Positions 3,041 to 41,127 of a stretch of DNA of 41,127 nt are shown piece by piece (position 1 is the first letter of the stretch; each line of letters starts with the position of its first letter). The position numbers and the translations under genes were made by a program. The notes beneath the pieces are model-generated. The model saw nothing but the letters and a program-made list of their open reading frames with translations. It ran no database searches and had not been told where the DNA came from. The DNA lies in the IMG/VR virus record IMGVR_UViG_3300030497_000005; one strand, 5' to 3'. Origin of the DNA: a virus.

Positions 3041-4673
3041 TTATCATCCTTACATTGATGAATACATGGATATGGTTGACCAAGAACTAATTGAAACATG
3101 CGAAGAACATAAAATGTTGATGCATTTTTTAAGATGGAAACTAGACCAACCTAATGTAATTATCGATGCAGAAGCAATTGAAAAATCTATAACAGTGCCT
3201 GAGCCATACTTCCCCTTTAAGCTATTTCCATGGCAAAAATTTGTGAATGCTTTTATCTATGGTGTTCGTTACACAAATGGACAATTGGTATTTAACCGAT
3301 TTTTATTAGAACTAGGTCGTGGAGCAGGAAAGAATGGCTGGATATCATATAACGCTTTTCATATGATGTCCAAACATCATGGAGTAAAAAACTACGATAT
3401 TGATATAGTAGCTACTTCTGAAGGACAGGCTAAAACTTCTTTCGAGGATGTTTACAATGTAATTGATGATCCCAAGAACAATAAAACATTGAAAAAATCC
3501 TTTAAGCATACCAAGGTTTTAATACAACACAAAGTAACGAAATCAAAACTTGAGTTCAACACTTCTAATGCCAGAACAAAAGATGGTAAGCGGAGTGGGG
3601 TAGTAATTTTTGATGAGGTCCACGAATACGAAGATTACTCCAACATTAAAGTATTTACTTCTGGTTTAGGTAAAAAGAAAGATCCCCGAACTTTTTATAT
3701 CACAACAAATGGAAATATAAGGGGTGGGGTTTTAGATGATTTGAAGGAAGAAGCAAGGATGGTTCTTGCAAGAGAATTTCCTGAAAGCACATTGTTCCCA
3801 TTCATTTGTAAGTTAGACCATGAAGATGAAGTGGATAATATGGAGTTATGGGAGAAGGCAAATCCTTCTTTCCGATATAACCAGAACTTACAACACGAAA
3901 TGAAGCAAGAATATCATCTCATGAAGAAGAACAGTGCTCTGCGAATGGAGTTCATGACAAAAAGAATGAACTTACCGCAAGAGGATGTAAGAAAAGAAGT
4001 AGCAACATATAAAGACCGTTTGGCTACAGAACAACCAATTCCAAAACTACAAAACTTTGAAGCTATTGGCGGATTAGACTTTGCTCAAATCCGTGACTTT
4101 TGCTCTTGTGGTTTGTTATTAAAAGCAGACGGTAAAAGATATTGGTTACAACATACCTTTATGCATCATACTGCTCCAAAAACACAGGATATTAACGAAG
4201 ATATTATTAACTTAGCAATAAAAAAGAAACTTCTTACAGTAGTACACGATAAAACAATTAGTGCTGAACATGTTGTTAATTGGTTTGTTAAAGAAGCGAA
4301 AAAGTATCGCATCAAAAAAGTGTGTATGGATTTACATCGTTCCTCCATCTTAAAACCTGCCTTTGAAGAGGCTGGATTTGAAGTTGAGGTAGTTCGAAGA
4401 GGTATTGTAACTCACAGTTTATTATCACCATTGATTGACGAAATGTTTGTTAATAGAGAAATAGTATTTGGTGATGATCCATTGATGAGATGGTATGTAG
4501 GAAATGTTTATAAAGAAGAAAAGATGAATGGAAACATTGAATACAAAAAGATAGATGCAGAGAAGCGAAAGACTGACGGTTTTTTCGCTCTTACCCATGC
4601 CCTGAATTTCGATTCTGAGCTTACAGAGTATACACCAATTAAAGCAGGAGCATTTAAAGTGAAAACTTTCTAG
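3027..4673 (+). CDS. terL: terminase large subunit
   Basis: Walker A-like GRGAGKNG and Walker B VVIFDEVHEY; size about 550 aa. SD GAGAGGGA followed 8 nt later by ATG 3027, overlapping the terS end (track start 3009). Confidence 0.9.
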   Translation: MRTCSYHPYIDEYMDMVDQELIETCEEHKMLMHFLRWKLDQPNVIIDAEAIEKSITVPEPYFPFKLFPWQKFVNAFIYGVRYTNGQLVFNRFLLELGRGAGKNGWISYNAFHMMSKHHGVKNYDIDIVATSEGQAKTSFEDVYNVIDDPKNNKTLKKSFKHTKVLIQHKVTKSKLEFNTSNARTKDGKRSGVVIFDEVHEYEDYSNIKVFTSGLGKKKDPRTFYITTNGNIRGGVLDDLKEEARMVLAREFPESTLFPFICKLDHEDEVDNMELWEKANPSFRYNQNLQHEMKQEYHLMKKNSALRMEFMTKRMNLPQEDVRKEVATYKDRLATEQPIPKLQNFEAIGGLDFAQIRDFCSCGLLLKADGKRYWLQHTFMHHTAPKTQDINEDIINLAIKKKLLTVVHDKTISAEHVVNWFVKEAKKYRIKKVCMDLHRSSILKPAFEEAGFEVEVVRRGIVTHSLLSPLIDEMFVNREIVFGDDPLMRWYVGNVYKEEKMNGNIEYKKIDAEKRKTDGFFALTHALNFDSELTEYTPIKAGAFKVKTF

Positions 4674-4688
4674 GAAGGTGGTGAGATT

Positions 4689-5861
4689 ATGGGGTTTATA
4701 GACTGGTGTTTAGGCCTTTTTAGAAGTGATGACGGAACTGTTAATCTTAAAGATTACCATTATGAATTAAGCGTTAAAGCTTATGCGAAAAAGCTGGCTA
4801 TTGAAACATGTATAGATATTATTGCAAAGACTTTAGTTCGTTGTGAATTTCAAACATTTGAAAAAGGAAAAGAAACAATCGGCAATAATTATTATTTGTT
4901 AAATGTTTCTCCTAATGACAATCAGAATGCCAGTGAGTTCATTCACTCCTTGGTAAACAAACTCATTAAGAATAATGAATGTTTAGTCATAATGCAAAGT
5001 GATCAATTATTTGTAGCAGATGCTTTTACCAGAACAGAATATGCTTTAAAAGAAAATGAGTATACAAATGTAACAGTTAAAACTTTGAGCTTTAATAAAG
5101 TGTTTTTCGAAAGTGATGTTTTGTATTTCAAGTTAAACGATTCCAATATTATGAGCGTTATCAATGAGCTTCATGAGGATTACGGAAAGATATTAGATTC
5201 CGCAATTAAAATCTATAAACGTTCTAACGCAAAAAGAGTGATAGTTGAAGGGGATTTCTTAAGGCCACAATCGGATGAACATCAAGCTGCTATTGATGAG
5301 ATGTTTAACACTCAATTCAAAAGCTGGTTCGAAGCTGATAATGCTGGAGCGGTTTTTCAATTACAAAAGGATTATAAATTAACAGATGTAAGTGGAAATG
5401 GGAAAAGTGGAACCCCCACAACAAACAGCCGAGATATTAGGGCGGTAATGGAAGATATTTTTGATTTTATCGCAATGGCTTTTCATGTACCAAGAGGTAT
5501 GTTGAAAGGTGATTTAGCAGACGTTGATAAGCAGACAGACAACTTTTTAATGTTTGGCATTTTGCCATTAATTGAATTAATTACAGATGAGTTCAATCGA
5601 AAAATGTACAAAAAGGAAAGTTTTTTAGATAGAACATATCTGAAAATGGATTCATCCAAGATAAAGATTCTTGACATTGTAAACTTAGCAACTGCAGCAG
5701 ATAAGTTCTTTGCTATAGGAGTTAACAATATTGATGATAACTTACGAATGTTAGGAAGGGAGCCTTTGAATGAAGACTATTCACAGAAAAGATATGTTAC
5801 TAAAAACTATGAATCTGTTGATGCCATTGGCAAGGAGTCGAAGGGAGGTGAAGGGATATGA
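4689..5861 (+). CDS. portal protein (HK97-type)
   Basis: 390 aa, positioned between terL and the prohead protease. Its end overlaps the protease start by 4 nt. Confidence 0.8.
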   Translation: MGFIDWCLGLFRSDDGTVNLKDYHYELSVKAYAKKLAIETCIDIIAKTLVRCEFQTFEKGKETIGNNYYLLNVSPNDNQNASEFIHSLVNKLIKNNECLVIMQSDQLFVADAFTRTEYALKENEYTNVTVKTLSFNKVFFESDVLYFKLNDSNIMSVINELHEDYGKILDSAIKIYKRSNAKRVIVEGDFLRPQSDEHQAAIDEMFNTQFKSWFEADNAGAVFQLQKDYKLTDVSGNGKSGTPTTNSRDIRAVMEDIFDFIAMAFHVPRGMLKGDLADVDKQTDNFLMFGILPLIELITDEFNRKMYKKESFLDRTYLKMDSSKIKILDIVNLATAADKFFAIGVNNIDDNLRMLGREPLNEDYSQKRYVTKNYESVDAIGKESKGGEGI

Positions 5862-6589
5862 AAATAAGACGTTACAAAAATGAGCAATTCAATAAGCTGG
5901 CTGAAATTACACCGCAGTTTAAAGCAGAAACAAAAGAGGATGTTTCTAAATTAACTATATATGGAGATATCGGTCAATCATGGTGGGGAGATTCTATTTC
6001 AGCCAGTCAGATTGAGCGCGCATTAAAGGACATTAGTTCCGATACCATTCATGTTCATTTAAACAGTGGTGGTGGTGATGTATTCGATGGTATAGCTATC
6101 TATAACCAATTGAAAAATCACAGTGCTAAAATTGTAATTCACGTTGAAGGGTTGGCTGCCAGTGCAGCATCTTTAATATTATGTGCTGCTGATGAAGCTA
6201 TCGTTTATACAGGGGCAATGGTTATGATTCATGAAGCTTCTACTGGAGTATGGGGAACAAAGGCCGATATCAAGAAAACATTAAATGCATTGGAAGGTAT
6301 AGATAAATCCATCGCTGATATCTATATGACTAAGTTCCAAGGAGAACGTGACGATGTTGTAAAAATGATTGAAAATGAAACTTGGTTTACAGCAGGTGAA
6401 GCAGTTGATTTCGGTTTAGCTGACCAAGTCGATGAGACTCAAGTAACTACAACCGAAGAAGATCCAGAGGATTTTAAAAATAGCGTACTTGAAAAAATCC
6501 GAAACAGAAACAGTGACAATAACAATACTCAATTACCTAAACCAAACAATGGCATATTAAATAAATTCAAACGCGTATCAGGTGAATAG
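5858..6589 (+). CDS. ClpP-like prohead maturation protease
   Basis: NSGGGDVFDGIAIYNQL, GLAASAASLILCAAD (Ser) and MIHEAS (His) match the ClpP/S14 signature. Confidence 0.9.
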   Translation: MKIRRYKNEQFNKLAEITPQFKAETKEDVSKLTIYGDIGQSWWGDSISASQIERALKDISSDTIHVHLNSGGGDVFDGIAIYNQLKNHSAKIVIHVEGLAASAASLILCAADEAIVYTGAMVMIHEASTGVWGTKADIKKTLNALEGIDKSIADIYMTKFQGERDDVVKMIENETWFTAGEAVDFGLADQVDETQVTTTEEDPEDFKNSVLEKIRNRNSDNNNTQLPKPNNGILNKFKRVSGE

Positions 6590-6624
6590 GCGTTTTTTCT
6601 ATGCTCAAAAATAGGAGGATTCTA

Positions 6625-7848
6625 ATGAAACAAACTTATAAAAATCATACAAACTCTTTTCTAAAACTTAATTTACAACTTTTTGGCGGTATTAAGAATT
6701 TAGATAACAATAAACCTGTTATCCAAAATAAGGATGCACAGATAGCTGCTATGCAAGCTGCCTTTGAAGAAGGCGATGCGAAAATTGTTGCTGAAAAGCT
6801 GCTGGAAAACTTTGAAACCAATTTTGTTCACTTCCAAGGGATGGTTGAAGATGTAGTAAAAGATGCGAAAAGAGCAAAAGAAGAAAATTGGGATGCAAGT
6901 GTACTAGCAACTCGCGGTGTACGAGTTTTAACTAGTGAAGAAAAGAAATTCTACAACCAAGTAATTGAAGTGCAGTCATTCAGCGAAGTGCAAAAACTGA
7001 TGCCGCCAACTGTGTTCGAAAGAGTATTCGAAGACCTTACTATTGAACATCCTTTGTTGTCTAAAGTTAATTTCCAAACAACAGGAGCAACTACAGCTTG
7101 GGTACTTCGTAAGCCAGGGGCAACTACAGCGTTTTGGGGAGATGTAACATCTGCCATTCAACAAATGGTGGACGAAGGATTCTATACTGTTGAGCAAGGT
7201 ATGTTCAAACTTAGCGGATTCTTAGTTGTATCTAAAGCTATGTTTGAACTTGGACCTGAATGGTTAGACCGTTATGTCCGCACATTCTTGCAAGAGGTTA
7301 TTTCGGCAGAGCTAGAAGAGGTTATTGTTGTAGGTACAGGTAATAAACAACCAATCGGAATGATTCGCGACCTTGAAGGTGCTGTTGTAGGTGGTGTTTA
7401 TCCTGAGAAAACAAAAATTGAAATGACAGACTTCACACCAAAAGAAATTGGAGAAAAGATTCTTGCTCCAACTACTAAAAACGGTACTCGCCGTTATACA
7501 GGTGTAACGATTATTATCAACCCACTTGATTATGCAACTAAGCTCTTCCCATTAGGAACGAAGCGGAAAGATGATGGAACTTGGACTTATGATAATTTCT
7601 CTGTACCGGGCTTAGAAATTATTCAATCACCTTCTGTTCCTTTAAATACAATGATCACTGGGAAACCAAAAGATTACTTTATGGGTGTAGCAAGTGAACA
7701 AAAAATCGAAACAACAGATGTATTGCGTATGATTGAAGACCAACGCTTATACCTTGTGCGCCAACTTGCAAACGGTCGTCCACTTGATGCTGATTCATTT
7801 ACAGTATTTGATATTACAAATCTAGGTGACACTACACCAACACCTTAA
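6625..7848 (+). CDS. major capsid protein (HK97 fold family)
   Basis: About 407 aa, follows the protease, with an N-terminal helical delta-like region. SD AGGAGG (6613-6618) followed 6 nt later by ATG 6625 (track start 6601). Confidence 0.85.
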   Translation: MKQTYKNHTNSFLKLNLQLFGGIKNLDNNKPVIQNKDAQIAAMQAAFEEGDAKIVAEKLLENFETNFVHFQGMVEDVVKDAKRAKEENWDASVLATRGVRVLTSEEKKFYNQVIEVQSFSEVQKLMPPTVFERVFEDLTIEHPLLSKVNFQTTGATTAWVLRKPGATTAFWGDVTSAIQQMVDEGFYTVEQGMFKLSGFLVVSKAMFELGPEWLDRYVRTFLQEVISAELEEVIVVGTGNKQPIGMIRDLEGAVVGGVYPEKTKIEMTDFTPKEIGEKILAPTTKNGTRRYTGVTIIINPLDYATKLFPLGTKRKDDGTWTYDNFSVPGLEIIQSPSVPLNTMITGKPKDYFMGVASEQKIETTDVLRMIEDQRLYLVRQLANGRPLDADSFTVFDITNLGDTTPTP

Positions 7849-7868: not shown

Positions 7869-8180
7869 ATGCCCTACAAAGTATTAAATGATTTTATAGA
7901 AAATGAACACAAAGGATTAAAGTATCAAAAAGGGGAACTGTATCCAAAGACAGGATTTGAAGCAGATCCCGAAAGAGTCGCATTTTTACAAGAAGATCAT
8001 GAGAAGTACAAAAAGCGGTTTTTAGGACTTGTAATTGAAACAGAAGAAAGTGAGATAGAGCAGGAACCAGAAAAACTTGCTAATGATGATGAAGTAGACA
8101 GCAAACAAGAAGCAGCAGCTGCAGAAGAAGAAACGAAGCCTAAATCTAAAACAAAAACAAAACCTAAAGCCACTGAATAA
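7869..8180 (+). CDS. hypothetical protein with acidic/Lys-rich tail (head-associated by position)
   Basis: Good SD AGGAGG. C-terminal low-complexity EEETKPKSKTKTKPK. Confidence 0.6.
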   Translation: MPYKVLNDFIENEHKGLKYQKGELYPKTGFEADPERVAFLQEDHEKYKKRFLGLVIETEESEIEQEPEKLANDDEVDSKQEAAAAEEETKPKSKTKTKPKATE

Positions 8181-8192
8181 GAGGGTGGTTAA

Positions 8193-8516
8193 ATGACTGA
8201 GCAAATTTTAGCTTCTTTGTTGGAAGAAGTGAAAAGTAATTTGCAGATTACTTGGGATGATGAAGAGACGAACAAAAGCCTGCAAGGTATTATAAAAAGA
8301 GCAGAGGCGTACTTGTTGAATTTAACGAGTGCGCCTTCTTTTGATTTTTCTAAAGATGATGATCCTAAATCCTTATTGTTAGAGCGTTGCAGGTATGTGT
8401 ATAACAATTCAGCTGATGAATTTGAAACTAATTATCAATCTGAACTAAATCGATTAATCCTAAGAGTTGCTTTGGATATACGAAAGACAGAGGTAAAAAC
8501 CGATGGACAGATATAG
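8193..8516 (+). CDS. head-tail connector (gp6-like) protein
   Basis: Position and size (107 aa) in the HK97-like head-tail joining block; SD GAGGGTGG. Confidence 0.55.
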   Translation: MTEQILASLLEEVKSNLQITWDDEETNKSLQGIIKRAEAYLLNLTSAPSFDFSKDDDPKSLLLERCRYVYNNSADEFETNYQSELNRLILRVALDIRKTEVKTDGQI

Positions 8517-24942: not shown

Positions 24943-25584
24943 CTATTTCATCTTGAAGTAAATACCTGGTGTTTTATTTACTGGAGTTTTCTTCTGTTTG
25001 TATTTTTCAATGTTTCCTTTTAAATCATGGATGCTGTTAACCTGACTAATCTTAAACGGATATTCTTCACGATTAAACTGCATGTTAAGTTTTCCGATGA
25101 TTAATACATTAGGAAACTTTTCTATAAAACCTTTTTCATAAAAAGATTTATATTTATCAAGCTTATCAGACAGTTGTTTAGTGCTAAATAAGCTGTTTTG
25201 GCACTCTATAAACCATTTCCTTCCTAACCAATCTGCAAAGCCGTCAGAAATGAAATCTGCGCCTTCTAGCTTACGCTCAACCTCAAATGAAGTTTTCCTA
25301 TCGTAGCTCAACATATCTACATATGTTTGACCAATCATCAAATGGTGGTCAAGTTTTGCAGAATTTATTTTAATAGCAGAGGGATTTAGGTAGTATAAAT
25401 AATGTTGAAAAGGTCGGTCTGTATTTGCTTGTATATAGCCATCTTGTCGTAATCGTTTTAACACGCGGTTTGCTGTTTTCAGTGGATCTGCATTACTTGA
25501 GAAGTGAAGCGCAGCTATCATTTTAGAGTCCATTACTTTAAATTTTTCTAAGGTACTCAGTATCTCTAAATCTCTTTTTCTCAT
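24943..25584 (-). CDS. replication-relaxation family protein
   Basis: N-terminal winged-helix-like MRKRDLEILSTLEKFKVMDSKMIAALHF...ANRVLKRLRQDGYIQ. SD TAGGAGTG followed by ATG 25584 (track start 25629). Lies 13 nt after the FtsK stop. Confidence 0.7.
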   Translation of the reverse strand: MRKRDLEILSTLEKFKVMDSKMIAALHFSSNADPLKTANRVLKRLRQDGYIQANTDRPFQHYLYYLNPSAIKINSAKLDHHLMIGQTYVDMLSYDRKTSFEVERKLEGADFISDGFADWLGRKWFIECQNSLFSTKQLSDKLDKYKSFYEKGFIEKFPNVLIIGKLNMQFNREEYPFKISQVNSIHDLKGNIEKYKQKKTPVNKTPGIYFKMK

Positions 25585-25597
25585 GATGTACACACTC

Positions 25598-26761
25598 CTA
25601 TGCAAATAAATCATCATTAGGGTTTTCATTTAATTCTGGTAAAGGTTCATTTACATTCTTAGCAGGGCCTTTCATGATACAGTAAGGGTTTAATATTTTT
25701 TTAGCTTCCTTAAAGGTTAAATGAGGACTTTGAAGCTCCATCAATTCTCCAGCATTTAAAATTAATCGTCCCATTTGGTCGAGCTTAATCTTTTCGGCTC
25801 CTTTTGTACCAAGTAACATGGCATTTGTTTTGTCTACTGTTCGGAAGCTCATACGAATACTAAAATTACTTCTTGCTTTCGTATTCATCACATCTGCATC
25901 CATCCGTTGTGCAGAAGCAAGTAATAGTACACCTGTTGCACGTCCTTTGCTAGTTATCTTTATTATGTTTTGCATTATTTCTTTATGGTCCATGTATTCA
26001 ATAAACTCATCAACAGCAACTAAAATTATTTTCTGCTTATGCTCAGGTGGTAAATCCGTTACATGCGGTACTTCATAAAGATCCAAAAGTTCTTCTCTTC
26101 TGTACATCTCTTTAACCACTTTATTTAAAACCTTGTGCGCATCTCTGGCCGAATAAACTACCTGTTGCACATGCTCTACCTTTTTGAACAAACCGAACTC
26201 AGCCCTTTTTCCATCAATACAATAGATATCTAGTTCAGATGGCTTTTTATATTGGATGAGCGTAGACAGAATGACACGAATAGAGGAGCTTTTACCACTT
26301 CCACTTGCTCCTTGAATAATGACATGAGGAAAATCTAAATTCTCTAGTACAATGTACTGTCCGTTGTTTTTCTTACCAACAACAATTGGCATAATCATTT
26401 CATCTAAATAGGGGGCTATTTCCTTGTAATTATAGAGAAGGTTTGATTTTAGAGGATTATCATATATGGTAAGTGTAAATGTTTTGGTATCACCTTTCAG
26501 AGCAATTGCGTTACCAAATATTTGTTCAAACACATAGTACTTCTTCATAGTCATTTCCTTTGGATCTAAGCCATTCAGTAAAGAAAACACTATTTCTGTG
26601 CAATTCTCCTTATCTTTACGCTTTATAGAATGAATGGGAGGGTATGCATAAATTGATTTATCGCCAAGTTTAGATGTCATAAACAAACCCGATCGCCTGA
26701 AAAATTGTTTTAATTTATATCTGTATTTAGTTTTAAACAATTGCTGTTGAATGTAGTTCAT
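25598..26761 (-). CDS. FtsK/SpoIIIE-family DNA translocase / coupling-protein-like ATPase
   Basis: Walker A GASGSGKSS, Walker B KIILVAVDEF, soluble N-terminus; SD GAGGTG. Confidence 0.9.
   Translation of the reverse strand: MNYIQQQLFKTKYRYKLKQFFRRSGLFMTSKLGDKSIYAYPPIHSIKRKDKENCTEIVFSLLNGLDPKEMTMKKYYVFEQIFGNAIALKGDTKTFTLTIYDNPLKSNLLYNYKEIAPYLDEMIMPIVVGKKNNGQYIVLENLDFPHVIIQGASGSGKSSSIRVILSTLIQYKKPSELDIYCIDGKRAEFGLFKKVEHVQQVVYSARDAHKVLNKVVKEMYRREELLDLYEVPHVTDLPPEHKQKIILVAVDEFIEYMDHKEIMQNIIKITSKGRATGVLLLASAQRMDADVMNTKARSNFSIRMSFRTVDKTNAMLLGTKGAEKIKLDQMGRLILNAGELMELQSPHLTFKEAKKILNPYCIMKGPAKNVNEPLPELNENPNDDLFA
26134..26143. repeat. third copy of TGTGCGCATC
   Basis: Identical 10-mer to 24627-24636, located inside the FtsK-like gene. 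Confidence 0.9.
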
Positions 26762-30014: not shown

Positions 30015-31007
30015 TTAACTAAACATCATTCTAAATTGGTCAAATACGTTTCCTTCCTCAGGCTTGTCCAGCGTTCTAATTTTATAATCAAAGGCATTAC
30101 TAACCCATTTTTGAATAAGACCATTCATGTTATCAATATTTTTAACGGTTTTAAGCATTTTAGAAATAGCTAAAGAAAACTCATAGTCATTAATTGCAGA
30201 GGTATCATCATTAGAACATTTTGGTTCAATATAACCTTTGTTAACTTGGTAAAAGTAAGCATCTTCAATTAATTGAATTTGAACAGCTGATAAATTAATA
30301 ATATTATCCACCATCATAACCTTAATCTTGTTCTTTAAATCTTGAGGTATCTTTGAATTCCATAAAATATTATATTTATCTACTACACTATGATTATGGT
30401 TAAGATTATTTATATTATTATTATTATTTATGTTTTTATTTATATTACTTATTACTTGTGTTCCATTTTGGAACTTCCCGAAGTTTGATTCTGGAACTTC
30501 CGGGAAGTTCGTATTTGAAACTTCCGAAGAACTTTCAGTTTTGATGCTTGTCTTTTCACTTTTTAAGACAAAGTTCATCTTATGGATTTTTTGTTTCTGT
30601 TTACGTTCTTCAATGCGATTTTTAATTTTTTGCTTCATTTGTTCATCATCGTTTATCATCAGTTCAGCAACAGCATCCCAAAAAATATGTATATATCTAG
30701 TTGTCTTTCCAGTTACTAATCTTTTCGTATGCCTTTTTAGCAAACTATGATCTTCCATTTCTTTGAATATCTTAGCTTGCTTACCCTTTTTCAAAGTAGT
30801 CTCCATTTCACAGTCTTCTTCTGTCCAATAAAACATATCATCTTGCAGCTTATTTTGTTCAAACCATCTTTTATATTGGTTGATTGTTTCAGCGAGTAAA
30901 ACAGCGAAGTCAATACCAAATTTACGAGCAATCAATTTATTTACTGGAACAAAAGCTGAAGCTGACATCCAATTTATTGCTAACATTTTAGAATCTATAT
31001 TTGCCAT
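30015..31007 (-). CDS. plasmid-type replication initiator (RepA_N-like)
   Basis: The N-terminal region (FVPVNKLIARKFGIDFAVLLAETINQYKRWF...FYWTEEDCEMETTL...IFKEMEDHSLLKR) resembles the winged-helix RepA_N/DnaD-like initiator layout. The central region is a low-complexity poly-Asn linker carrying DNA repeats. SD GGAGG followed 8 nt later by ATG 31007. Confidence 0.65.
   Translation of the reverse strand: MANIDSKMLAINWMSASAFVPVNKLIARKFGIDFAVLLAETINQYKRWFEQNKLQDDMFYWTEEDCEMETTLKKGKQAKIFKEMEDHSLLKRHTKRLVTGKTTRYIHIFWDAVAELMINDDEQMKQKIKNRIEERKQKQKIHKMNFVLKSEKTSIKTESSSEVSNTNFPEVPESNFGKFQNGTQVISNINKNINNNNNINNLNHNHSVVDKYNILWNSKIPQDLKNKIKVMMVDNIINLSAVQIQLIEDAYFYQVNKGYIEPKCSNDDTSAINDYEFSLAISKMLKTVKNIDNMNGLIQKWVSNAFDYKIRTLDKPEEGNVFDQFRMMFS
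30470..30534. repeat. three iteron-like repeats inside rep gene (candidate origin)
   Basis: GGAACTTCCCGAAGTT (30470), GGAACTTCCGGGAAGTT (30493) and GAAACTTCCGAAGAACTT (30517) at a 23-24 bp period, each internally palindromic. They are flanked by the AT-rich tract 30395-30460. Confidence 0.65.
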
Positions 31008-31064
31008 AAAAAAAACCTCCACTAATTTTTGTGAAGGAAATTCGCCAAGTTTTAATAAAAACTC

Positions 31065-31093
31065 TAGACACTAAAATAAAATATGGGTATAAT
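31065..31093 (+). promoter_or_regulatory. promoter of antisense RNA
   Basis: -35 TAGACA (31065-31070), exactly 17 nt, -10 TATAAT (31088-31093). Confidence 0.55.
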
Positions 31094-31099
31094 TAACTT

Positions 31100-31228
31100 A
31101 ACTAAATTAAGTTAAATCATTTCCCCTTACTTTGGTAGGTGAGTGGCGAAATTCCTTGGAAGCTCTGATGTTTGCCGCATCGAGCTTCTTTTACTTTATA
31201 ATTCCTGTCCATTGAGACAGGTTTTTTT
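31100..31228 (+). ncRNA. candidate countertranscript antisense to the rep mRNA leader
   Basis: Bounded by the promoter above and by two plus-strand intrinsic terminators. The first is GAAGCTCTGATG / CATCGAGCTTC followed by TTTT (31159-31192). The second is CCTGTC / GACAGG followed by T7 (31204-31228). No ORF. It lies wholly within the rep leader. Confidence 0.5.
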
Positions 31229-31258
31229 ATGTATTTTGAATTACTTGTCTTATGTATT

Positions 31259-31287
31259 AGTATATGTATTTTTCGCGCATTTTGCAA
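31259..31287 (-). promoter_or_regulatory. rep promoter
   Basis: On the minus strand: -35 TTGCAA (31287-31282), 17 nt, -10 TATACT (31264-31259). This gives a leader of about 245 nt to ATG 31007. Confidence 0.55.
31270..31285. promoter_or_regulatory. CGCGC box A (TTTTCGCGCATTTTGC) inside rep promoter
   Basis: 15/16 identical to box B at 34045-34060. Confidence 0.45.
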
Positions 31288-31309
31288 GAAAAAATTAAAG
31301 AAGGATTTA

Positions 31310-31543
31310 TTATTTATACTTCATTAAATCCCACAACTCAATTGGTTCTTCTCCTTTTTCTGCAGCAACCTCATTTAAAACATGCAAAATATTTTCTAAA
31401 GTATCAATATGAACACGATCTACATTATTATTTTTAAGTGCATATACAGTCTTGGGAGCAACTCGCGCCAATGTAGCAACCTTATTAGGTGTAACATTAA
31501 GTTTTTTCAATACCTGATTTAATGTAAATTCGATTTTTTTCAT
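31310..31543 (-). CDS. small XRE-type HTH regulator (CopR-like position upstream of rep)
   Basis: LNQVLKKLNVTPNKVATLARVAPKTVYALKNN is an HTH motif. SD GGGGA followed 5 nt later by ATG 31543 (track start 31603). Confidence 0.7.
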   Translation of the reverse strand: MKKIEFTLNQVLKKLNVTPNKVATLARVAPKTVYALKNNNVDRVHIDTLENILHVLNEVAAEKGEEPIELWDLMKYK

Positions 31544-31651
31544 CATAATCCCCATAATGTGACATAATTTGACTAATACATAATTTTTATAACAATATAC
31601 CATATTTAACTAATAAATTATATAACTATCAACAATGTTATAAAATATAAG

Positions 31652-31680
31652 TTGCAAAGTTTGCCTTTAGGGGTTAAACT
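31652..31680 (+). promoter_or_regulatory. promoter of receptor gene
   Basis: -35 TTGCAA, 17 nt, -10 TAAACT. Confidence 0.4.
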
Positions 31681-31715
31681 TTTAATTACAAAAATATGGT
31701 TAGGGAGGGATTTTA

Positions 31716-32849
31716 GTGGGAAGTAATTATTTGGACAAGCTAAAAAACGATGCCAAAAAATTTGGTTTTACATATGAGAAACTTGGCAAGTATTTAGGAG
31801 TTAGCAAAGGACAAATATCCCACTATTTCAGTCTTAAAAACCATATATCATTTGATAAATTTGTTGAGCTATTAAAATTAATATATGATGACACAAATGT
31901 TATTTCTAATTACATAGCAGAGTATGCATTAAATATTGATGATTTGGGCGATGTAAGAGCTGCTACAGAATTTCTAGATAGTCATGGCAGAGAGGACCTA
32001 ATTAAACAAATAATAAAGAAGTATGCTGATGAACCATATCTGAAAGTATATAAGGTTATAGCGGAACGTAACGAGGGTATTTTAAGCGAAAAACAAGTGT
32101 ACTGGGAATTAGAAAAACTGAAATCAATAACTCCTGAAGAAAATAATGAAACCAATCTTTTAATTAACGTCAAATCTTTATCATGTTGCATTAATTTACA
32201 AGCTGTTGGCATGGTGCATATTTTGGCAGAAGATCTTTTGGAATTGATAAAATCAATTCCAAACCAGTATATCAAGGAATCCCTTGAATTAAAGATACTA
32301 GATACTGTTGCAAGGGCTCACCAAAAACAATCTGAATTGGAAATTGCTATTGATATTTGTAATGATGTTATAAAACGAAGTGAGAACTATCCTTTGGAAA
32401 AAATATATATGTTGAACTTATTGAGTGAAATACATGTTTTTAGTTCTTATGAAAAAAGTATTAATTATAATAAGAAAGCGCTGGATTTATACAATAAGTT
32501 AGGTTCAGGAACCAATTTAAGATTTAAAGATTTATTAGAATCCACTCATGATTTTATAAAAATATTCCATGAAGATTATGAGGATTTATTTCTGACAGAT
32601 CCAGCAGAAAAAGCTTACTATTTAGTATCTAACGGAAATCCAGAAGACCTTAAAAAGGGTATATCATTATTGGAACAAATGAAAAGTAAAAACGGAAAAC
32701 TTTCCCCTCAACAAGAATATTACTACGCACTTAGCCAAAATGATTTAACTCTTATGGAAGAATCATTATTAACTTTCGAAAAAGCAGGCGACATTTTTTA
32801 TTCTAATTTACCCAAAAACCATTTAATAGGAAAAAAGAATCATCTTTAA
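31716..32849 (+). CDS. aimR: AimR-like (RRNPP-type) peptide receptor / transcription regulator
   Basis: 377 aa with an N-terminal HTH (LGKYLGVSKGQISHYF) and an all-helical TPR-like remainder. Followed by a secreted propeptide gene. By eye it resembles phi3T/SPbeta AimR in size and layout. Confidence 0.65.
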   Translation: MGSNYLDKLKNDAKKFGFTYEKLGKYLGVSKGQISHYFSLKNHISFDKFVELLKLIYDDTNVISNYIAEYALNIDDLGDVRAATEFLDSHGREDLIKQIIKKYADEPYLKVYKVIAERNEGILSEKQVYWELEKLKSITPEENNETNLLINVKSLSCCINLQAVGMVHILAEDLLELIKSIPNQYIKESLELKILDTVARAHQKQSELEIAIDICNDVIKRSENYPLEKIYMLNLLSEIHVFSSYEKSINYNKKALDLYNKLGSGTNLRFKDLLESTHDFIKIFHEDYEDLFLTDPAEKAYYLVSNGNPEDLKKGISLLEQMKSKNGKLSPQQEYYYALSQNDLTLMEESLLTFEKAGDIFYSNLPKNHLIGKKNHL

Positions 32850-32909
32850 CAAATGTTAGAAAAAATACAAATTTTTTGACTTTATTGCTATCCGCGTTAA
32901 AATCACTTG

Positions 32910-32918
32910 TGATATAAT
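32910..32918 (+). promoter_or_regulatory. extended -10 element TGATATAAT upstream of propeptide gene
   Basis: Perfect TGnTATAAT; overlaps the ATG at 32917. Confidence 0.45.
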
Positions 32919-33123
32919 GAAAATACGCGCGAATAGTAATAAAGTTAGTGAGGTGCTTTTCCTGAAAAACAAAATTAAAAAAGTCATTATCGGTACATTG
33001 TTAGCTGCAACGTTAATCACAGGTTCTTTCGTATCATCGGTACAAGAAAAACAACAAACAGCTTCAGCTGATTATCATGAAAGCTTTGATAAAACAGCAG
33101 ATCCTGGTGGCGGAAGAACTTAA
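32917..33123 (+). CDS. aimP: secreted signalling propeptide (AimP-like), C-terminus ...ADPGGGRT
   Basis: Lys-rich n-region, hydrophobic core VIIGTLLAATLITGSFV and polar tail. The probable real start is CTG 32962, 6 nt after SD GTGAGGTG (53 aa). Confidence 0.6.
   Translation: MKIRANSNKVSEVLFLKNKIKKVIIGTLLAATLITGSFVSSVQEKQQTASADYHESFDKTADPGGGRT
32926..32940. promoter_or_regulatory. CGCGCG box D (CGCGCGAATAGTAAT)
   Basis: Located at the predicted +1 of the propeptide promoter. 13/15 identical to box C. Confidence 0.45.
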
Positions 33124-33149
33124 TAAAACAAATATATCTTAATATGTTG

Positions 33150-33185
33150 AAAGACATCATACATTTGGTATGGTGTCTTTGTTAA
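33150..33185 (+). terminator. terminator after propeptide gene
   Basis: AAAGACATCATAC / GTATGGTGTCTTT 13-bp stem with a 5-nt loop. Confidence 0.65.
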
Positions 33186-33196
33186 TTTAAAGAGAA

Positions 33197-33232
33197 GTTT
33201 AGTCATTTTAAGAAAATGAAAAAACACTAAAC
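33197..33232. promoter_or_regulatory. candidate receptor operator GTTTAGT-N22-ACTAAAC
   Basis: 7-bp inverted repeat with a 22-bp spacer, located between the propeptide terminator and the 52-aa ORF. Confidence 0.4.
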
Positions 33233-33250
33233 GAATGAGGGGATTCAATA

Positions 33251-33409
33251 ATGCATACATTACCAGATTTATTAGTTGAACTTTGTAAACAAAACAAAAT
33301 TAATCCAACAGCATACATAAATCAAGGAGCTATAGATGTTAATGAGATAATAACATCTTTAGTTGATAATGGAATAGCATCAGAAGAGACTTTAAAAGAC
33401 CTCATATAA
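33251..33409 (+). CDS. 52-aa ORF in AimX position (not in ORF track)
   Basis: MHTLPDLLVELCKQNKINPTAYINQGAIDVNEIITSLVDNGIASEETLKDLI. SD GAGGGG lies 8 nt upstream. Confidence 0.5.
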   Translation: MHTLPDLLVELCKQNKINPTAYINQGAIDVNEIITSLVDNGIASEETLKDLI

Positions 33410-33411
33410 AT

Positions 33412-33453
33412 AAAAAAAAGAACATTTTCCATAGGGAGGTATGTTCTTTTTTT
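33412..33453. terminator. bidirectional terminator (AimX-position ORF / CI-like gene)
   Basis: AAAAAAAAGAACAT / ATGTTCTTTTTTT stem. Confidence 0.8.
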
Positions 33454-33455
33454 AT

Positions 33456-33806
33456 TTATTTGTTTAAAAGTGCTGAAATAACTTTTTTTAAATTATCTGC
33501 TTGTTCTTCAGTAATTGGTTTGCCATCATATGTTAGTGTACTGGAATTAAGAATATTTTTAAGTTCATTTATATCCATTGTAGTTTCTTCGTCAGTATTA
33601 CCAGTTAGGTAATCAACTGTGGTTTCTAATATTTCTGCTAATCTAACCAGAGCATTTCCATTTACTTTACGTCTACCAGTTTCCCATCCAGTTAATGTAG
33701 ATCTACTTATATCAAGAGTATTTAATATATATGGAATTTTGATTTTATGCTTCTTGCGTAAGTATCTAATTCTGTCTCCAGTTATTGATTTGTAGTTTTC
33801 CTCCAC
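33456..33806 (-). CDS. CI-like XRE repressor (no S24 peptidase domain)
   Basis: ITGDRIRYLRKKHKIKIPYILNTLDISRSTLTGWETGRR is an HTH motif. 116 aa. Divergent from the Cro-like gene. Confidence 0.8.
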   Translation of the reverse strand: MEENYKSITGDRIRYLRKKHKIKIPYILNTLDISRSTLTGWETGRRKVNGNALVRLAEILETTVDYLTGNTDEETTMDINELKNILNSSTLTYDGKPITEEQADNLKKVISALLNK

Positions 33807-33895
33807 TTCACATTCACTCCTAAAACATTATTAGACATTTTATGTTATGTTGTAGTACTTTATCTAGCATCAATATGGATTAATACTAAATATAG

Positions 33896-33913
33896 ACTGT
33901 GTATATACACAGT
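33896..33913. promoter_or_regulatory. 18-bp perfect palindrome ACTGTGTATATACACAGT (operator candidate)
   Basis: Read directly. A third half-site-like copy, TAGACTCTGTAT, follows at 33914-33925. Confidence 0.55.
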
Positions 33914-34040
33914 TAGACTCTGTATGGACATTTTATATTCTTATTATATTATCTTCAAAATGCGGTCAATATGCAATAAAAATATGTTTTTTGAATAAAA
34001 TTCATTTTTTACAAAAAACATATTTTTTATTCAAAACCGC

Positions 34041-34069
34041 TTGATTTTCGCGCGTTTTGCGTGTATATT
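34041..34069 (+). promoter_or_regulatory. early (cro-side) promoter
   Basis: -35 TTGATT, 17 nt, -10 TATATT. The spacer contains box B. Confidence 0.5.
34045..34060. promoter_or_regulatory. CGCGCG box B (TTTTCGCGCGTTTTGC)
   Basis: Located in the spacer of the early promoter. Confidence 0.45.
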
Positions 34070-34110
34070 TAAATGTATAATCATTCAATGTACATAAAGG
34101 AGAACGATAA

Positions 34111-34305
34111 ATGGGTTCTGCCAAGAAGAGAATAATTTTAATAAATGAACGTGAAAAAAGAAAATTATCTCAAACTGAAGTAGCTAAATACATTGGTATT
34201 AATGTAATGACATACTCTAATATTGAAAGAGGTGTTAGAAATCCAGGATTAAAAACAGCCATTAAGATTGCAGACTTTTTTAAAATTGATATTAAAAAGC
34301 TGTAA
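34111..34305 (+). CDS. Cro-like XRE HTH regulator (64 aa)
   Basis: REKRKLSQTEVAKYIGINVMTYSNIERGVRNP is an HTH motif. First gene of the rightward early operon. Confidence 0.8.
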   Translation: MGSAKKRIILINEREKRKLSQTEVAKYIGINVMTYSNIERGVRNPGLKTAIKIADFFKIDIKKL

Positions 34306-34332
34306 TTTTTTTTAAATAATATTAGCGCGTTT

Positions 34333-34347
34333 CGCGCGAATATAAAT
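34333..34347. promoter_or_regulatory. CGCGCG box C (CGCGCGAATATAAAT), preceded by GCGCG-TTT-CGCGC hairpin
   Basis: Read directly, in the gap between the cro-like gene and the next ORF. Confidence 0.45.
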
Positions 34348-34388
34348 TATTGCGATTTGTCAGTATTTGTAGATGGGAGGAATTCAGA

Positions 34389-34709
34389 ATGATGAACACT
34401 AAATTAAGAATTTCTACAGACCAAAGTCAAATAGTTGTACACGCGATTAAAGAGTTAATTCCTTCTTTAAATAAAGGAGAAGTTAGTCAGTTTAAGATGG
34501 CAGCAGTTAAATTCAGGGATGAAGAAATTTATGTTGATGGTATTTCAATGAGATGTGCAGAAAGAGCTTTATTAGAAAAGGCATCTAAGTCAGAGTACAA
34601 GCTTACTAGACTCATTCTAAAAAACCTTGCTGGATCCATTGAAGAACAAAGAGAACACTTCCAAGAACAATTTAAAGAACAATCAATGAAACAAATATTT
34701 GCTGGTTAA
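34389..34709 (+). CDS. hypothetical early protein
   Basis: SD GGGAGG followed 8 nt later by ATG 34389 (track start 34350). Confidence 0.6.
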   Translation: MMNTKLRISTDQSQIVVHAIKELIPSLNKGEVSQFKMAAVKFRDEEIYVDGISMRCAERALLEKASKSEYKLTRLILKNLAGSIEEQREHFQEQFKEQSMKQIFAG

Positions 34710-34721
34710 GGAGTGATTTGA

Positions 34722-34958
34722 ATGCCCTATGAATCTAAAAAGTACAAAGAAAGAAAAAGGCGTAAAGAATTTGGTCATCTCCTTAGACAAACAAGAGCAG
34801 AGAAAAACTTATCTAAGGAAGCAGCAGCAATGTATTTAGGAATCTCAATTGAAACATTAGAGCGAATAGAACAAGGCAGTGTTTCTCCAGATATACCTAA
34901 TTTATCAAGGAAGGTTGATAAATTAAAGGATAGAGAGAAGATGCTGATTGCGCTATGA
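34722..34958 (+). CDS. XRE-type HTH protein
   Basis: LLRQTRAEKNLSKEAAAMYLGISIETLERIEQG is an HTH motif. Confidence 0.7.
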   Translation: MPYESKKYKERKRRKEFGHLLRQTRAEKNLSKEAAAMYLGISIETLERIEQGSVSPDIPNLSRKVDKLKDREKMLIAL

Positions 34959-36921: not shown

Positions 36922-37453
36922 AATGGTAAAAGATTTTCAAACGAAAATGGGGCAACCAGTAGCAGGAAGACCAACAGTAATGGGTATCAAGCGAATGCAA
37001 GAAAGGTTTGTTTATCTGGAAGAAGAACTAAATGAATTTGCTGTTGCTGAAACAGTAGTAGATCAAGCTGATGCAATGATTGATCTCATTTATCTTGCTA
37101 TAGGAACACTAGTGGAATTAGGAGTGCAGCCAGAGAAATTGTTTGAAATTGTACATAATGCCAACATGTCTAAGTTATGGGAAGATGGTAAACCAAGAAC
37201 GAACCCTGAGACAGGGAAAATTATTAAACCACCAACATTCGTAAGACCAGAACCATTGCTACAAAAAGAAATCGAACGTCAGTCAACGTTTTGGATTGAT
37301 GCAGTATCAAGATATTTTCCAGAAGTCACAAAACAGGAAATTGAATTTATTCTTTGGGAAAAAACAGCATACCCACTAGGGAGTGCCGCAACTGTAGAGC
37401 AGCAATTAAAAGATTTGAAAGATGAAATAGAAGCAAAAAGCGAAACGAAATAA
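36905..37453 (+). CDS. MazG-like nucleotide pyrophosphohydrolase
   Basis: YLEEELNEFAVAETVVDQADAMIDLIYLAIGT carries the acidic ExxE...D motifs of the all-alpha NTP pyrophosphatase fold. Confidence 0.65.
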   Translation: MNKQYEMVKDFQTKMGQPVAGRPTVMGIKRMQERFVYLEEELNEFAVAETVVDQADAMIDLIYLAIGTLVELGVQPEKLFEIVHNANMSKLWEDGKPRTNPETGKIIKPPTFVRPEPLLQKEIERQSTFWIDAVSRYFPEVTKQEIEFILWEKTAYPLGSAATVEQQLKDLKDEIEAKSETK

Positions 37454-37508
37454 CCGCGCAATTGTACAATTATGCGCGGTAAAAAATCTAAATAAGGAGC
37501 AAATCAAA

Positions 37509-38000
37509 ATGCCAAATTGGAGCGAAGGAACTTTAAAAATTAGAGGAACAAGAGCAAATATTAAAAGATTTTTAACTGAAGGAATAGAACCATTACCTAG
37601 CTTAAAGGACCAAATCGCAGCAATGCGAGGACAAGAAGTCGAGCAACCTAAATTAAAAATTGAGGAAGATGAGTACGACTTAACTATAAGTGCTGATAAT
37701 GGAATTTATATAACAGGAACTAGAAGAGCATTCATTGAGCAAGATATTGTTTGGGACTTTGATGATAAGCATGAGGAAGTTTTAGTGATTAATAACTTCA
37801 AGCAAGCATGGGGTGTTGATGCTCAATCATTTGCTGATATATCCAAAAAGTTTGATATCGACATAAGAATATACGTGTTTGAATGCGGAATGGAGTTCAA
37901 TCAGGAAATTGAAATTCATAAGGGTAAAGTAATTACAAATAAGGAGATAAAGTTTAAAGATTATGCTTGGGATTGTGTTTTTCCTAACTTAGGAGGTTGA
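37509..38000 (+). CDS. hypothetical protein with MPNW N-terminus (DUF1281/Api92-like?)
   Basis: MPNWSEGTLKIRGTRANIKRFL resembles the N-terminus typical of that family. Weak call. Confidence 0.5.
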   Translation: MPNWSEGTLKIRGTRANIKRFLTEGIEPLPSLKDQIAAMRGQEVEQPKLKIEEDEYDLTISADNGIYITGTRRAFIEQDIVWDFDDKHEEVLVINNFKQAWGVDAQSFADISKKFDIDIRIYVFECGMEFNQEIEIHKGKVITNKEIKFKDYAWDCVFPNLGG

Positions 38001-41000: not shown

Positions 41001-41127
41001 TAGTGAATAAAATCTTGCATATTTCCAAGGAGAAAAGGGGGCCATTTTCAGTGGAGGATTTGATTAAAGAGTACAAATTAACATTAAAAAAAATTAGAAA
41101 ACAGAAAGTGGAATTGAAAACAAGAAT
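41001..41127. repeat. terminal direct repeat, right copy (identical to 1-127)
   Basis: Read directly. Most simply an assembly overlap of a circular or circularly permuted molecule. Confidence 0.98.

Follow-up and report, generated by a model that had tools for sequence, protein, structure and literature searches.

The 41,127-bp DNA of IMG/VR virus record IMGVR_UViG_3300030497_000005 (the window, meaning the whole stretch analysed here) is a phage-plasmid whose switch region reads, from its gene order and domains, as an "extended arbitrium" module with the genes aimR, aimP, aimX, aimC and aimL. Four short boxes, A to D, lie respectively at the promoter of the replication initiator gene rep, in the early lytic promoter of the cro-like gene aimL, just past aimL, and at the promoter of the arbitrium propeptide gene aimP. 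These boxes are copies of a single repressor-binding motif, most likely one recognised by AimC. They are probably the operators through which AimC, a CI-like lysogeny repressor, would repress the aimL, aimP-aimX and rep promoters together. Comparative data support the idea of a shared operator that would link replication control, signalling and the genetic switch.

One probable operator motif at four control points

The hexamer CGCGCG occurs exactly three times in the window (32926, 34049 and 34333), against 0.48 expected, and none of 100 dinucleotide-preserving shuffles reaches three. A preliminary description had picked out these three hexamers as intergenic, together with the one-base variant CGCGCA at 31274, and a recount places all four between open reading frames (ORFs). 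The longer strings are also as it read them: box A, TTTTCGCGCATTTTGC (31270-31285), and box B, TTTTCGCGCGTTTTGC (34045-34060), are 15/16 identical, and box C as first read (34333-34347) matches box D (32926-32940) at 13/15. The same description judged this pattern hard to attribute to chance. That judgement stands for the number and location of the CG cores, which are confined to about 1.1 kb of control DNA. It does not stand for the extended match alone, because in a within-window control 17 of 200 shuffles (8.5%) also reach 15/16 between these AT-rich intergenic regions, which makes the A/B similarity weak evidence by itself. What makes the boxes significant is how many CG cores there are, where they lie and what the relatives show.

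A division of the boxes into two classes, A/B and C/D, turned out to be an artefact. An unbiased repeat search of 30950-34500 returned as its first family A (31269-31293), B (34044-34068) and C (34319-34343), in register over 25 nt, and D is the same half-site reversed. Box C as first read is the right arm of a full dyad at 34322-34340; A, B and D have one good half-site apiece. When the 41 kb are scanned with this dyad, the best matches are B with 4 of 19 mismatches, A with 5 and D with 6, and just two other matches have 6. The sequences suggest an operator built as an 8-3-8 dyad, with a half-site consensus of about TT[AC][AG]CGCG. Rfam holds no family matching the boxes. The operators and promoters are as follows.

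34322-34340: operator C, full 19-bp dyad TTAGCGCG-TTT-CGCGCGAA; best site and reference motif, 16 nt after the aimL stop codon
34047-34065, plus strand: operator B, TTCGCGCGTTTTGCGTGTA; 4/19 mismatches to C, none as good in background
34041-34069, plus strand: aimL (cro-side) promoter, TTGATT-17-TATATT
31272-31290, plus strand: operator A, TTCGCGCATTTTGCAAGAA; 5/19 mismatches to C, with a good left half-site
31259-31287, minus strand: rep promoter, TTGCAA-17-TATACT
32924-32942 (core 32926-32933), minus strand: operator D, half-site TTCGCGCG reversed; about +1 to +10 of the aimP promoter
32910-32918, plus strand: extended -10 of the aimP promoter, TGaTATAAT, read from the sequence
32893-32900, minus strand: extra half-site TTAACGCG, 33 bp upstream of D, across the aimP -10

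The placement of each box relative to its promoter or gene, as first proposed, was recovered in every case. Operator A lies within the core of the minus-strand rep promoter (31287..31259): its right half is the -35 hexamer TTGCAA, and the site overlaps both the -35 and the spacer. Operator B fills the 17-bp spacer of the aimL promoter, the early lytic promoter. Box D begins 7 nt past the extended -10 of the propeptide gene, at about +1, and C starts 16 nt beyond the cro-like gene. In a syntenic contig, L001, the extended -10 is kept as TGtTATAAT and GCGCG occupies the place equivalent to the extra half-site at 32893-32900; a 21-mer around box D, AATACGCGCGAATAGTAATAA, is identical in L001 and in the 1-kb fragment L002. 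Operators B and C are 275 bp apart in the window and 274-294 bp apart across the five genomes measured. This spacing varies from 26.1 to 28.0 helical turns, so no claim of helical phasing is made.

Two further observations concern the CG-rich strings. Restriction-site avoidance was considered as a cause of the CGCG clustering, since the related plasmid pBstUI51 comes from a strain producing BstUI (CGCG). It was rejected: the window contains 32 CGCG against about 34 expected from base composition, so there is no genome-wide depletion. Separately, an intergenic inverted repeat, CCGCGCAATTGTACAATTATGCGCGG, occurs at 37453-37478, between an ORF ending at 37453 and a gene starting at 37510. Its CGCGC arms are everted around a 12-nt centre, unlike the 8-3-8 operator, and it could be a terminator or the site of another protein.

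Relatives carry their own dyads at the same positions

Close relatives of the region are rare. Megablast against phage and plasmid records gives no match, and the sole match of a distant blastn search is a rep fragment in Geobacillus phage GR1. Related-locus searches of viral, genome and metagenome collections with AimR, AimC or an AimR alignment found none, nor did exact scans of these collections for the box-D 20-mer, and a query for contigs encoding the window's own AimR and AimC protein clusters returned no record. The AimR and AimC searches that did yield relatives gave L001, a JGI contig with AimR 43% and AimC 56-58% identical to the window and a non-homologous Rep, as well as the fragment L002 and the Parageobacillus thermoglucosidasius contigs L003-L005. 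Searches with tblastn added two syntenic Anoxybacillus plasmids (pBstUI51 and the B7M1 plasmid) and many phage-plasmids of the Bacillus cereus group. A Rep search added four further syntenic metagenomic elements, L012, L014, L015 and L016, with Rep 66-79% identical. The comparisons use nine genomes: the window, L001, L003, pBstUI51, the B7M1 plasmid, L012, L014, L015 and L016.

L001 keeps CGCG-type half-sites at A (TTCGTGCG), B (TTAACGCG) and C (TTAACGCG-TTT-CGCGTTAA). The other relatives have no CGCGCG at these places; each has its own dyad directly past aimL:

L003: TTGTTTTCG-TTT-TGAAAACAA
pBstUI51: TGTACGCA-TTA-TGCGTACA
B7M1 plasmid: TGTTTC-TTATC-GAAACA
L012: ATGTTTCGTTACGAATACA
L014: ATGACGCATGAAGCGATAT
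L015: TTGTATTC-TTAAT-GAATACAA
L016: ATATCGCAT-C-ATGCGATAT

All nine genomes have a dyad in the post-aimL spacer, and in the five that were measured it stands 10-17 nt past the aimL stop. For the co-variation analysis, each genome's post-aimL dyad served as a probe against every genome, the best match per region was recorded, and the dyad-to-genome assignment was shuffled in a permutation test. Mean mismatches were as follows.

Region A (rep/HTH77 spacer): own dyad 5.2, heterologous 7.4, permutation P=9e-5
Region B (aimC/aimL): own dyad 4.4, heterologous 7.0, permutation P=1.5e-5
Region D (aimR/aimP): own dyad 5.7, heterologous 7.6, permutation P=0.0036
Region E (HTH77/aimR, control): own dyad 7.9, heterologous 7.8, permutation P=0.66

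Combined over A, B and D, the permutation gives P=2.5e-5. Across the relatives, a genome's own post-cro dyad recurs in the cro promoter spacer, at the rep promoter and usually at the aimP promoter, and in none of the nine genomes does it recur in the HTH77/aimR control spacer. In all five genomes checked precisely, the aimL promoter spacer is filled by the genome's own dyad; in five of five measured, a half-site adjoins the rep promoter -35 within the spacer, and a half-site plus TGCAA is present at this promoter in all nine. The aimP site falls at +1 in the window, L001, pBstUI51, L014 (as a perfect 19-bp palindrome) and L016, and over the -35 in L003. Conservation of the boxes in relatives was a check set beforehand, and its outcome is that position is conserved while sequence co-varies. 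The earlier proposal of a single DNA-binding protein acting at the rep, aimP, cro and post-cro control points thus gains computational support from co-variation.

The replication and switch modules are shuffled among these elements. L001 combines the window's AimC specificity with a non-homologous Rep (5299-6678, against 30015-31007 in the window), and L012-L016 combine the window's Rep with other AimC/operator types. Through these exchanges the rep promoter architecture, a TTGCAA -35 plus a half-site, persists. Elements whose Rep is 66-79% identical carry different half-sites there. Because the half-site changes with the dyad even among same-Rep elements, it belongs to the switch regulon and not to the replicon.

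Two observations on individual relatives stand apart from this analysis. In the B. mycoides plasmid p52 (L009), an identical 21-mer, ACTTGACCTAGGGTCATGTTA, lies in the cro-side promoter (8148-8168) and just past the cro-like gene (8422-8442); p52 is an arbitrium phage-plasmid of the B. cereus group, so the pairing of promoter and post-cro sites extends beyond the thermophile clade. In L012, aimL (native coordinates about 3666-3880) looks frameshifted, with the HTH in one frame and the C-terminus in another, and may be a defective cro-like gene or an assembly error.

AimC as the probable binding protein

The CI-like protein of the window matches PDB 9iaq with E=8.4e-21 over residues 11-115, covering both the helix-turn-helix (HTH) and the C-terminal oligomerisation domains. 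This entry, a 142-residue HTH protein, is taken from its length to be the crystallised AimC of phage BMBtp14, and on the strength of the match the CI-like protein is named AimC and the Cro-like protein AimL. The aimC gene lies on the opposite strand, and its product of 116 aa falls within the 80-140 aa range of such repressors; HTH_3 is its only domain, without an autocleavage domain.

Among the regulators compared, AimC alone has a recognition helix that tracks operator divergence. A Mantel test set the divergence of a hand-chosen 16-residue HTH segment (full length for Rep) against dyad divergence in the nine genomes, and the shuffling of modules among elements makes the regulators separable.

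AimC: Spearman r 0.51, Mantel P=0.003
HTH77: Spearman r 0.17, Mantel P=0.13
AimR: Spearman r 0.06, Mantel P=0.34
AimL: Spearman r -0.06, Mantel P=0.57
Rep (full length): Spearman r -0.12, Mantel P=0.76

In addition, three AimC helix classes match three operator classes:

RSTLTGWET, with CGCG-type dyads: window, L001
RSTY[TS]N[YW]E, with TGT[TA]TTC-type dyads: L003, B7M1 plasmid, L012, L015
RST[FY][TA]SWEL, with [AT]CGCA-type dyads: pBstUI51, L014, L016

The AimC HTH, LDISRSTLTGWETGRR, is identical in the window and L001, and the operators of these two cross-match. The preliminary description had listed four candidate binders: the HTH protein in the CopR position (here HTH77), the CI-like protein, the Cro-like protein and an HTH protein encoded at 34722-34958. 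Homology to 9iaq and helix/operator tracking single out the CI-like protein, and the helices of AimL and HTH77 do not track the operators. AimC proteins from several phages repress the aimL promoter about 100-fold and shift the aimC-aimL spacer in electrophoretic mobility shift assays; they form dimers and tetramers that AimX disrupts (bioRxiv 10.1101/2025.11.23.689978). The preprint gives no operator sequence for AimC and names no AimC target beyond the aimC-aimL spacer, and the links from AimC to aimP-aimX and rep would be new predictions of the present sequence comparison.

Other binders and other explanations fit less well. In lambda-type switches, Cro and CI share operators, and AimL (34111-34305) might likewise bind the boxes instead of AimC or jointly with it, autoregulating and shutting off aimP and rep in lytic growth. 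This XRE-type HTH protein is encoded between B and C, and the best sites flank its own gene. Its HTH nevertheless fails to follow operator divergence (r=-0.06, P=0.57): the window helix TYSNIERG is common to L012 and L015, whose operators are of the TGTATTC type, and the window and L001 differ in this helix yet share operator specificity. The Cro protein of the telomere phages, moreover, binds a single distinct site and not the repressor's set (PMC4997575). A role for AimL at the boxes is therefore improbable, and one for HTH77 (31310-31543) is more doubtful still. HTH77 would act as a copy-control repressor reaching into the phage switch. Its gene is conserved in all nine genomes and sits directly upstream of the rep promoter on the same strand, beside a candidate countertranscript, in a layout like that of inc18 CopR. 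Against this, the correlation of its HTH with the operator is not significant (r=0.17, P=0.13), pBstUI51 and the B7M1 plasmid have near-identical helices (TVYDMI[ND]N) with different dyads, and the dyad never appears in the promoter region of HTH77 itself (control region E). It is AimC that experimentally represses the aimL promoter in related modules (bioRxiv 10.1101/2025.11.23.689978).

The boxes might also be no operators at all, only chance CG-rich strings or RNA/DNA hairpins such as terminators and attenuators in intergenic DNA. A terminator scan does flag hairpins at 34325-34337 (minus strand) and 34049-34063, and the shuffle result for the A/B similarity points the same way. Yet C lacks a T-tail on the transcribed strand, the corresponding dyads in relatives are AT-rich and would form poor hairpins, and B lies in a promoter spacer that is not transcribed. 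On these grounds of tail sequence, AT-rich counterparts and spacer location, a terminator or hairpin role for B and C was rejected. With genome-specific recurrence at fixed positions in nine genomes (combined P as above), this explanation has been largely refuted and keeps very little probability. AimR is the least plausible binder of all. It is a DNA-binding HTH protein of the same cluster that could regulate aimP, aimL and rep directly, and two CGCG half-sites flank the aimP -10, 33 bp apart. These half-sites are direct and not inverted repeats, however, AimR HTH and dyad do not diverge together (r=0.06), and an AimR-type site sits elsewhere, at 33197-33232, and in most relatives. With this canonical site found, AimR was rejected as the binder of the boxes.

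Several points weigh against the assignment of all four boxes to AimC. The nine genomes are phylogenetically structured, and the Mantel test consists of nine related points and a hand-chosen 16-residue segment. In the window, A and D are only half-sites, and D differs from the dyad at 6 of 19 positions, so its affinity may rely on cooperativity. The B7M1 plasmid lacks site D, which is also weak in L012 and L015, and the dyad of the window fits L001 better than L001's own does. Experimental data on AimC exist for one relative, BMBtp14, and its post-aimL dyad, TACGCTTAAAGCGTA, matches the other positions only weakly. Read-through from the aimP promoter into aimX is known from SPβ-like phages alone. 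Finally, two palindromes of the aimC-aimL spacer, described next, could be AimC sites too.

The first, at 33896-33913, is a perfect 18-bp palindrome, ACTGTGTATATACACAGT, whose GTGTATATACAC core L001 retains. It lies downstream of a promoter-like site on the minus strand (33958..33930). By analogy with the telomere-phage Cro, AimL may bind it, or it may serve autoregulation at the aimC promoter. The second is a 50-bp AT-rich palindrome at 33978-34027, directly upstream of the aimL promoter -35, with 24-nt arms that are 92% complementary around a 2-nt centre. Part of it (TTTTGAATAAAA) is conserved in L001.

Proposed mechanism

From the motif enrichment, the site positions, the nine-genome positional co-variation, the AimC homology and the AimC-specific helix/operator correlation, we infer binding, the direction of regulation, looping and aimX read-through. 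AimC dimers would bind B and block RNA polymerase at the aimL promoter, keeping the early lytic operon off. The perfect dyad C would offer AimC a high-affinity auxiliary site, where its dimers or tetramers might repress cooperatively or through looping, or it would form a roadblock. At D, AimC would keep the aimP transcript down. Should aimX be expressed, as in phi3T/SPβ, through AimR-dependent read-through of the aimP terminator, AimC at D would also repress its own antirepressor, giving an AimC/AimX mutual-inhibition loop gated by AimR and the AimP peptide. At A, AimC would hold rep transcription low in the plasmid-prophage state, together with an antisense RNA, and inactivation of AimC by AimX would release rep.

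In its full form, this is a four-point AimC regulon of the aimL, aimP (plus aimX by read-through) and rep promoters, in which one protein would set immunity, signalling output and copy number. We hold this complete scheme tentatively, at slightly less than an even chance. If it is true, the arbitrium signal would be made mainly by cells in which the repressor is off, and modelling of signal production in lysogens would change.

The element and its gene module

The window has 34% G+C. Its first and last 127 bases are identical (1-127 and 41001-41127), a terminal direct repeat that indicates a circularly closed assembly with a true genome of about 41.0 kb. Phage genes encode a large terminase, portal, protease, major head protein, tape measure and endolysin; plasmid genes encode a ParM/Alp7A-like partition protein and the replication initiator. 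The genes and elements of the switch and replication region are as follows.

30015-31007, minus strand: rep, replication initiator; phrog_9773 'replication initiation O-like', match to the Geobacillus phage GR1 replication protein, homologues of 66-79% identity in syntenic elements
31065-31228, plus strand: candidate countertranscript, antisense to the rep leader; promoter TAGACA-17-TATAAT (31065-31093), terminator (31204-31221) with a T-run after it
31310-31543, minus strand: HTH77, small HTH gene in the CopR position, upstream of rep on the same strand; Pfam HTH_26, kept in all nine genomes
31716-32849, plus strand: aimR, arbitrium receptor with an N-terminal HTH and a TPR-like AimR domain; Pfam PF22871 (1.3e-32) and HTH_3, PHROG 1728 (1.6e-66)
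about 32953-33123, plus strand: aimP propeptide, start codon uncertain; hydrophobic N-terminus, C-terminus DPGGGRT
33150-33180, plus strand: aimP terminator hairpin, conserved across relatives
33197-33232: AimR-type long-spacer inverted repeat GTTTAGT-N22-ACTAAAC, likely AimR site, distinct from the CGCGCG boxes
33251-33409, plus strand: small ORF of 52 aa in the aimX position, candidate AimC antirepressor by position, strand and L001 homologue; role from bioRxiv 10.1101/2025.11.23.689978
33456-33806, minus strand: aimC, CI-like repressor of 116 aa, proposed binder of boxes A-D; Pfam HTH_3, PDB 9iaq
34111-34305, plus strand: aimL, Cro-like HTH protein of 64 aa, divergent from aimC; Pfam HTH_3 (7e-17)

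Immediately downstream of aimR, aimP is a short gene of the secreted-propeptide type whose ORF ends at 33123, and a DPGG motif near the C-terminus is common to relatives. The ATG at 32917, which opens the longest ORF, overlaps the -10 box and is ATA in L002 (741-790), so the real start is probably not an ATG. The sequence suggests GTG 32953 or CTG 32965, after a GAGGTG ribosome-binding site, as the probable start; at the corresponding position, L001 offers a clean ATG.

Relatives show almost no change in the aimP terminator hairpin (GACATCAT...ATGrTGTC), and the changes that BMBtp14 carries are compensatory. The hairpin is followed by an inverted repeat of the AimR type, with 6-7 bp arms and a 21-25 bp spacer, which co-varies between genomes. 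The terminator and repeat are found at 33150-33232 in the window, 8831-8914 in L001, 9680-9763 in L003 (reverse complement), 7433-7469 in L007 (the B7M1 plasmid) and 4469-4501 in L011. Known AimR sites, of which the SPβ operator is an example, consist of 6-bp arms in inverted orientation, about 25 bp apart. The inverted repeats past the aimP terminator are therefore predicted to be the AimR antitermination sites of these arbitrium elements. In the extended module, aimX is a small ORF of 29-80 aa on the aimP strand, between aimP and aimC; here the candidate is the 52-aa ORF just beyond, which has this place and strand and a weak homologue in L001.

At the replication end, the promoter of the candidate countertranscript over the rep leader is an 11/12 match, the best in the region, and the RNA folds with z=-4.3; Rfam holds no family matching it. 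The label 'CopR-position' given earlier to the HTH gene at 31310-31543 is structurally reasonable.

Some neighbouring features concern HTH77 and replication more generally. Between HTH77 and aimR, the B7M1 plasmid (L007, 5890-5980) contains two copies of a separate palindrome, GTAACGAAATTCGTTAC, and pBstUI51 (L006, 5960-5985) has one copy of AACGAAATTCGTT; no clear equivalent was seen in the window. These sites resemble a further operator for the aimR or HTH77 promoters, one that HTH77 itself may bind. Elsewhere in the window, at 24943-26761 on the minus strand, a second replication-initiation-like protein (phrog_2190, 3e-25) adjoins an FtsK/SpoIIIE-like ATPase. FtsK plus Replic_Relax genes are present in relatives (L012), which suggests that the element has a second function in replication or transfer.

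Comparison with known systems

The gene module itself belongs to the extended arbitrium family described by Kabel et al. (bioRxiv 10.1101/2025.11.23.689978). The window shares its five-gene order and strands, with a candidate ORF in the aimX position, and also its Pfam AimR domain, a short single-HTH repressor without an autocleavage domain that is homologous to crystallised AimC over both domains, and a divergent cro-like aimL. It differs in that the predicted operator also occurs past aimL, at the aimP promoter and at the plasmid rep promoter, and in that the hosts here are thermophilic Bacillaceae or metagenomic, as opposed to the Bacillus subtilis and cereus groups. The blocking of AimC by AimX, the mechanism of most arbitrium systems, has been described only in that 2025 preprint. 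The present analysis adds a concrete operator model, with an 8-3-8 dyad and three helix/operator specificity classes, and two testable predictions: AimC feedback on the aimP-aimX promoter and AimC control of the replication gene of plasmid prophages.

The stretch between aimP and aimX resembles the antitermination unit of phi3T/SPβ, with a terminator and, predicted from the sequence, a long-spacer inverted repeat just downstream. In phi3T/SPβ, the AimR site likewise lies just past the aimP terminator, and aimX is transcribed from the aimP promoter by AimR-dependent antitermination (PMC10769878).

On the plasmid side, rep and its surroundings recall the inc18 arrangement. There, the repressor CopR and the countertranscript RNAIII are encoded upstream of repR. 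In the window, a small HTH gene likewise precedes rep on its strand, the rep leader is covered by an antisense candidate that folds strongly, and the rep promoter carries a predicted repressor site. The difference, on indirect evidence, is that this operator co-varies with AimC and not with the CopR-position protein HTH77; Pfam and Rfam searches detect no sequence homology to CopR or RNAIII.

The post-aimL dyad has a counterpart in TP901-1, where the operator OD lies beyond the cro-like gene. In both systems, CI is a small protein that joins an N-terminal HTH to a C-terminal oligomerisation domain, and an auxiliary operator stands beyond the cro-like gene; in the present set, the post-aimL dyad of all nine genomes is the predicted one. 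The CI of TP901-1 has three operators, OR, OL and OD, and multimeric CI is thought to bridge sites (PMC7250872). It differs in being hexameric and antagonised by the cro-like MOR, whereas AimX is the expected antagonist here.

The proposed coupling to replication resembles that in the telomere phages N15 and φKO2. Their repressor CB has operators in both places, OR1-3 at cB-cro and OL1-2 at the repA promoter, and reduces the copy number of the plasmid-prophage, and their Cro binds one distinct site with a narrower specificity than CB (PMC4997575). In the window, too, the same operator motif stands at the lytic and the replication-gene promoters (P=1.5e-5 for B and P=9e-5 for A), and one repressor would couple immunity and copy number. 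N15 and φKO2 differ as Gram-negative linear telomere phages with unrelated proteins and without peptide signalling or such an antirepressor loop, and their replication gene has two full operators where the window has a single half-site fused to the -35. If the AimC regulon is real, it would explain how phage-plasmids of Gram-positive hosts coordinate copy number with lysis-lysogeny, as CB of N15 does in enterobacteria. Both N15/φKO2 and TP901-1 are analogies and not memberships. Collectively, these comparisons portray AimC as a CI-type repressor with distributed operators, for which the connections to the aimP-aimX promoter and to the rep promoter of a Gram-positive phage-plasmid would be new predictions.

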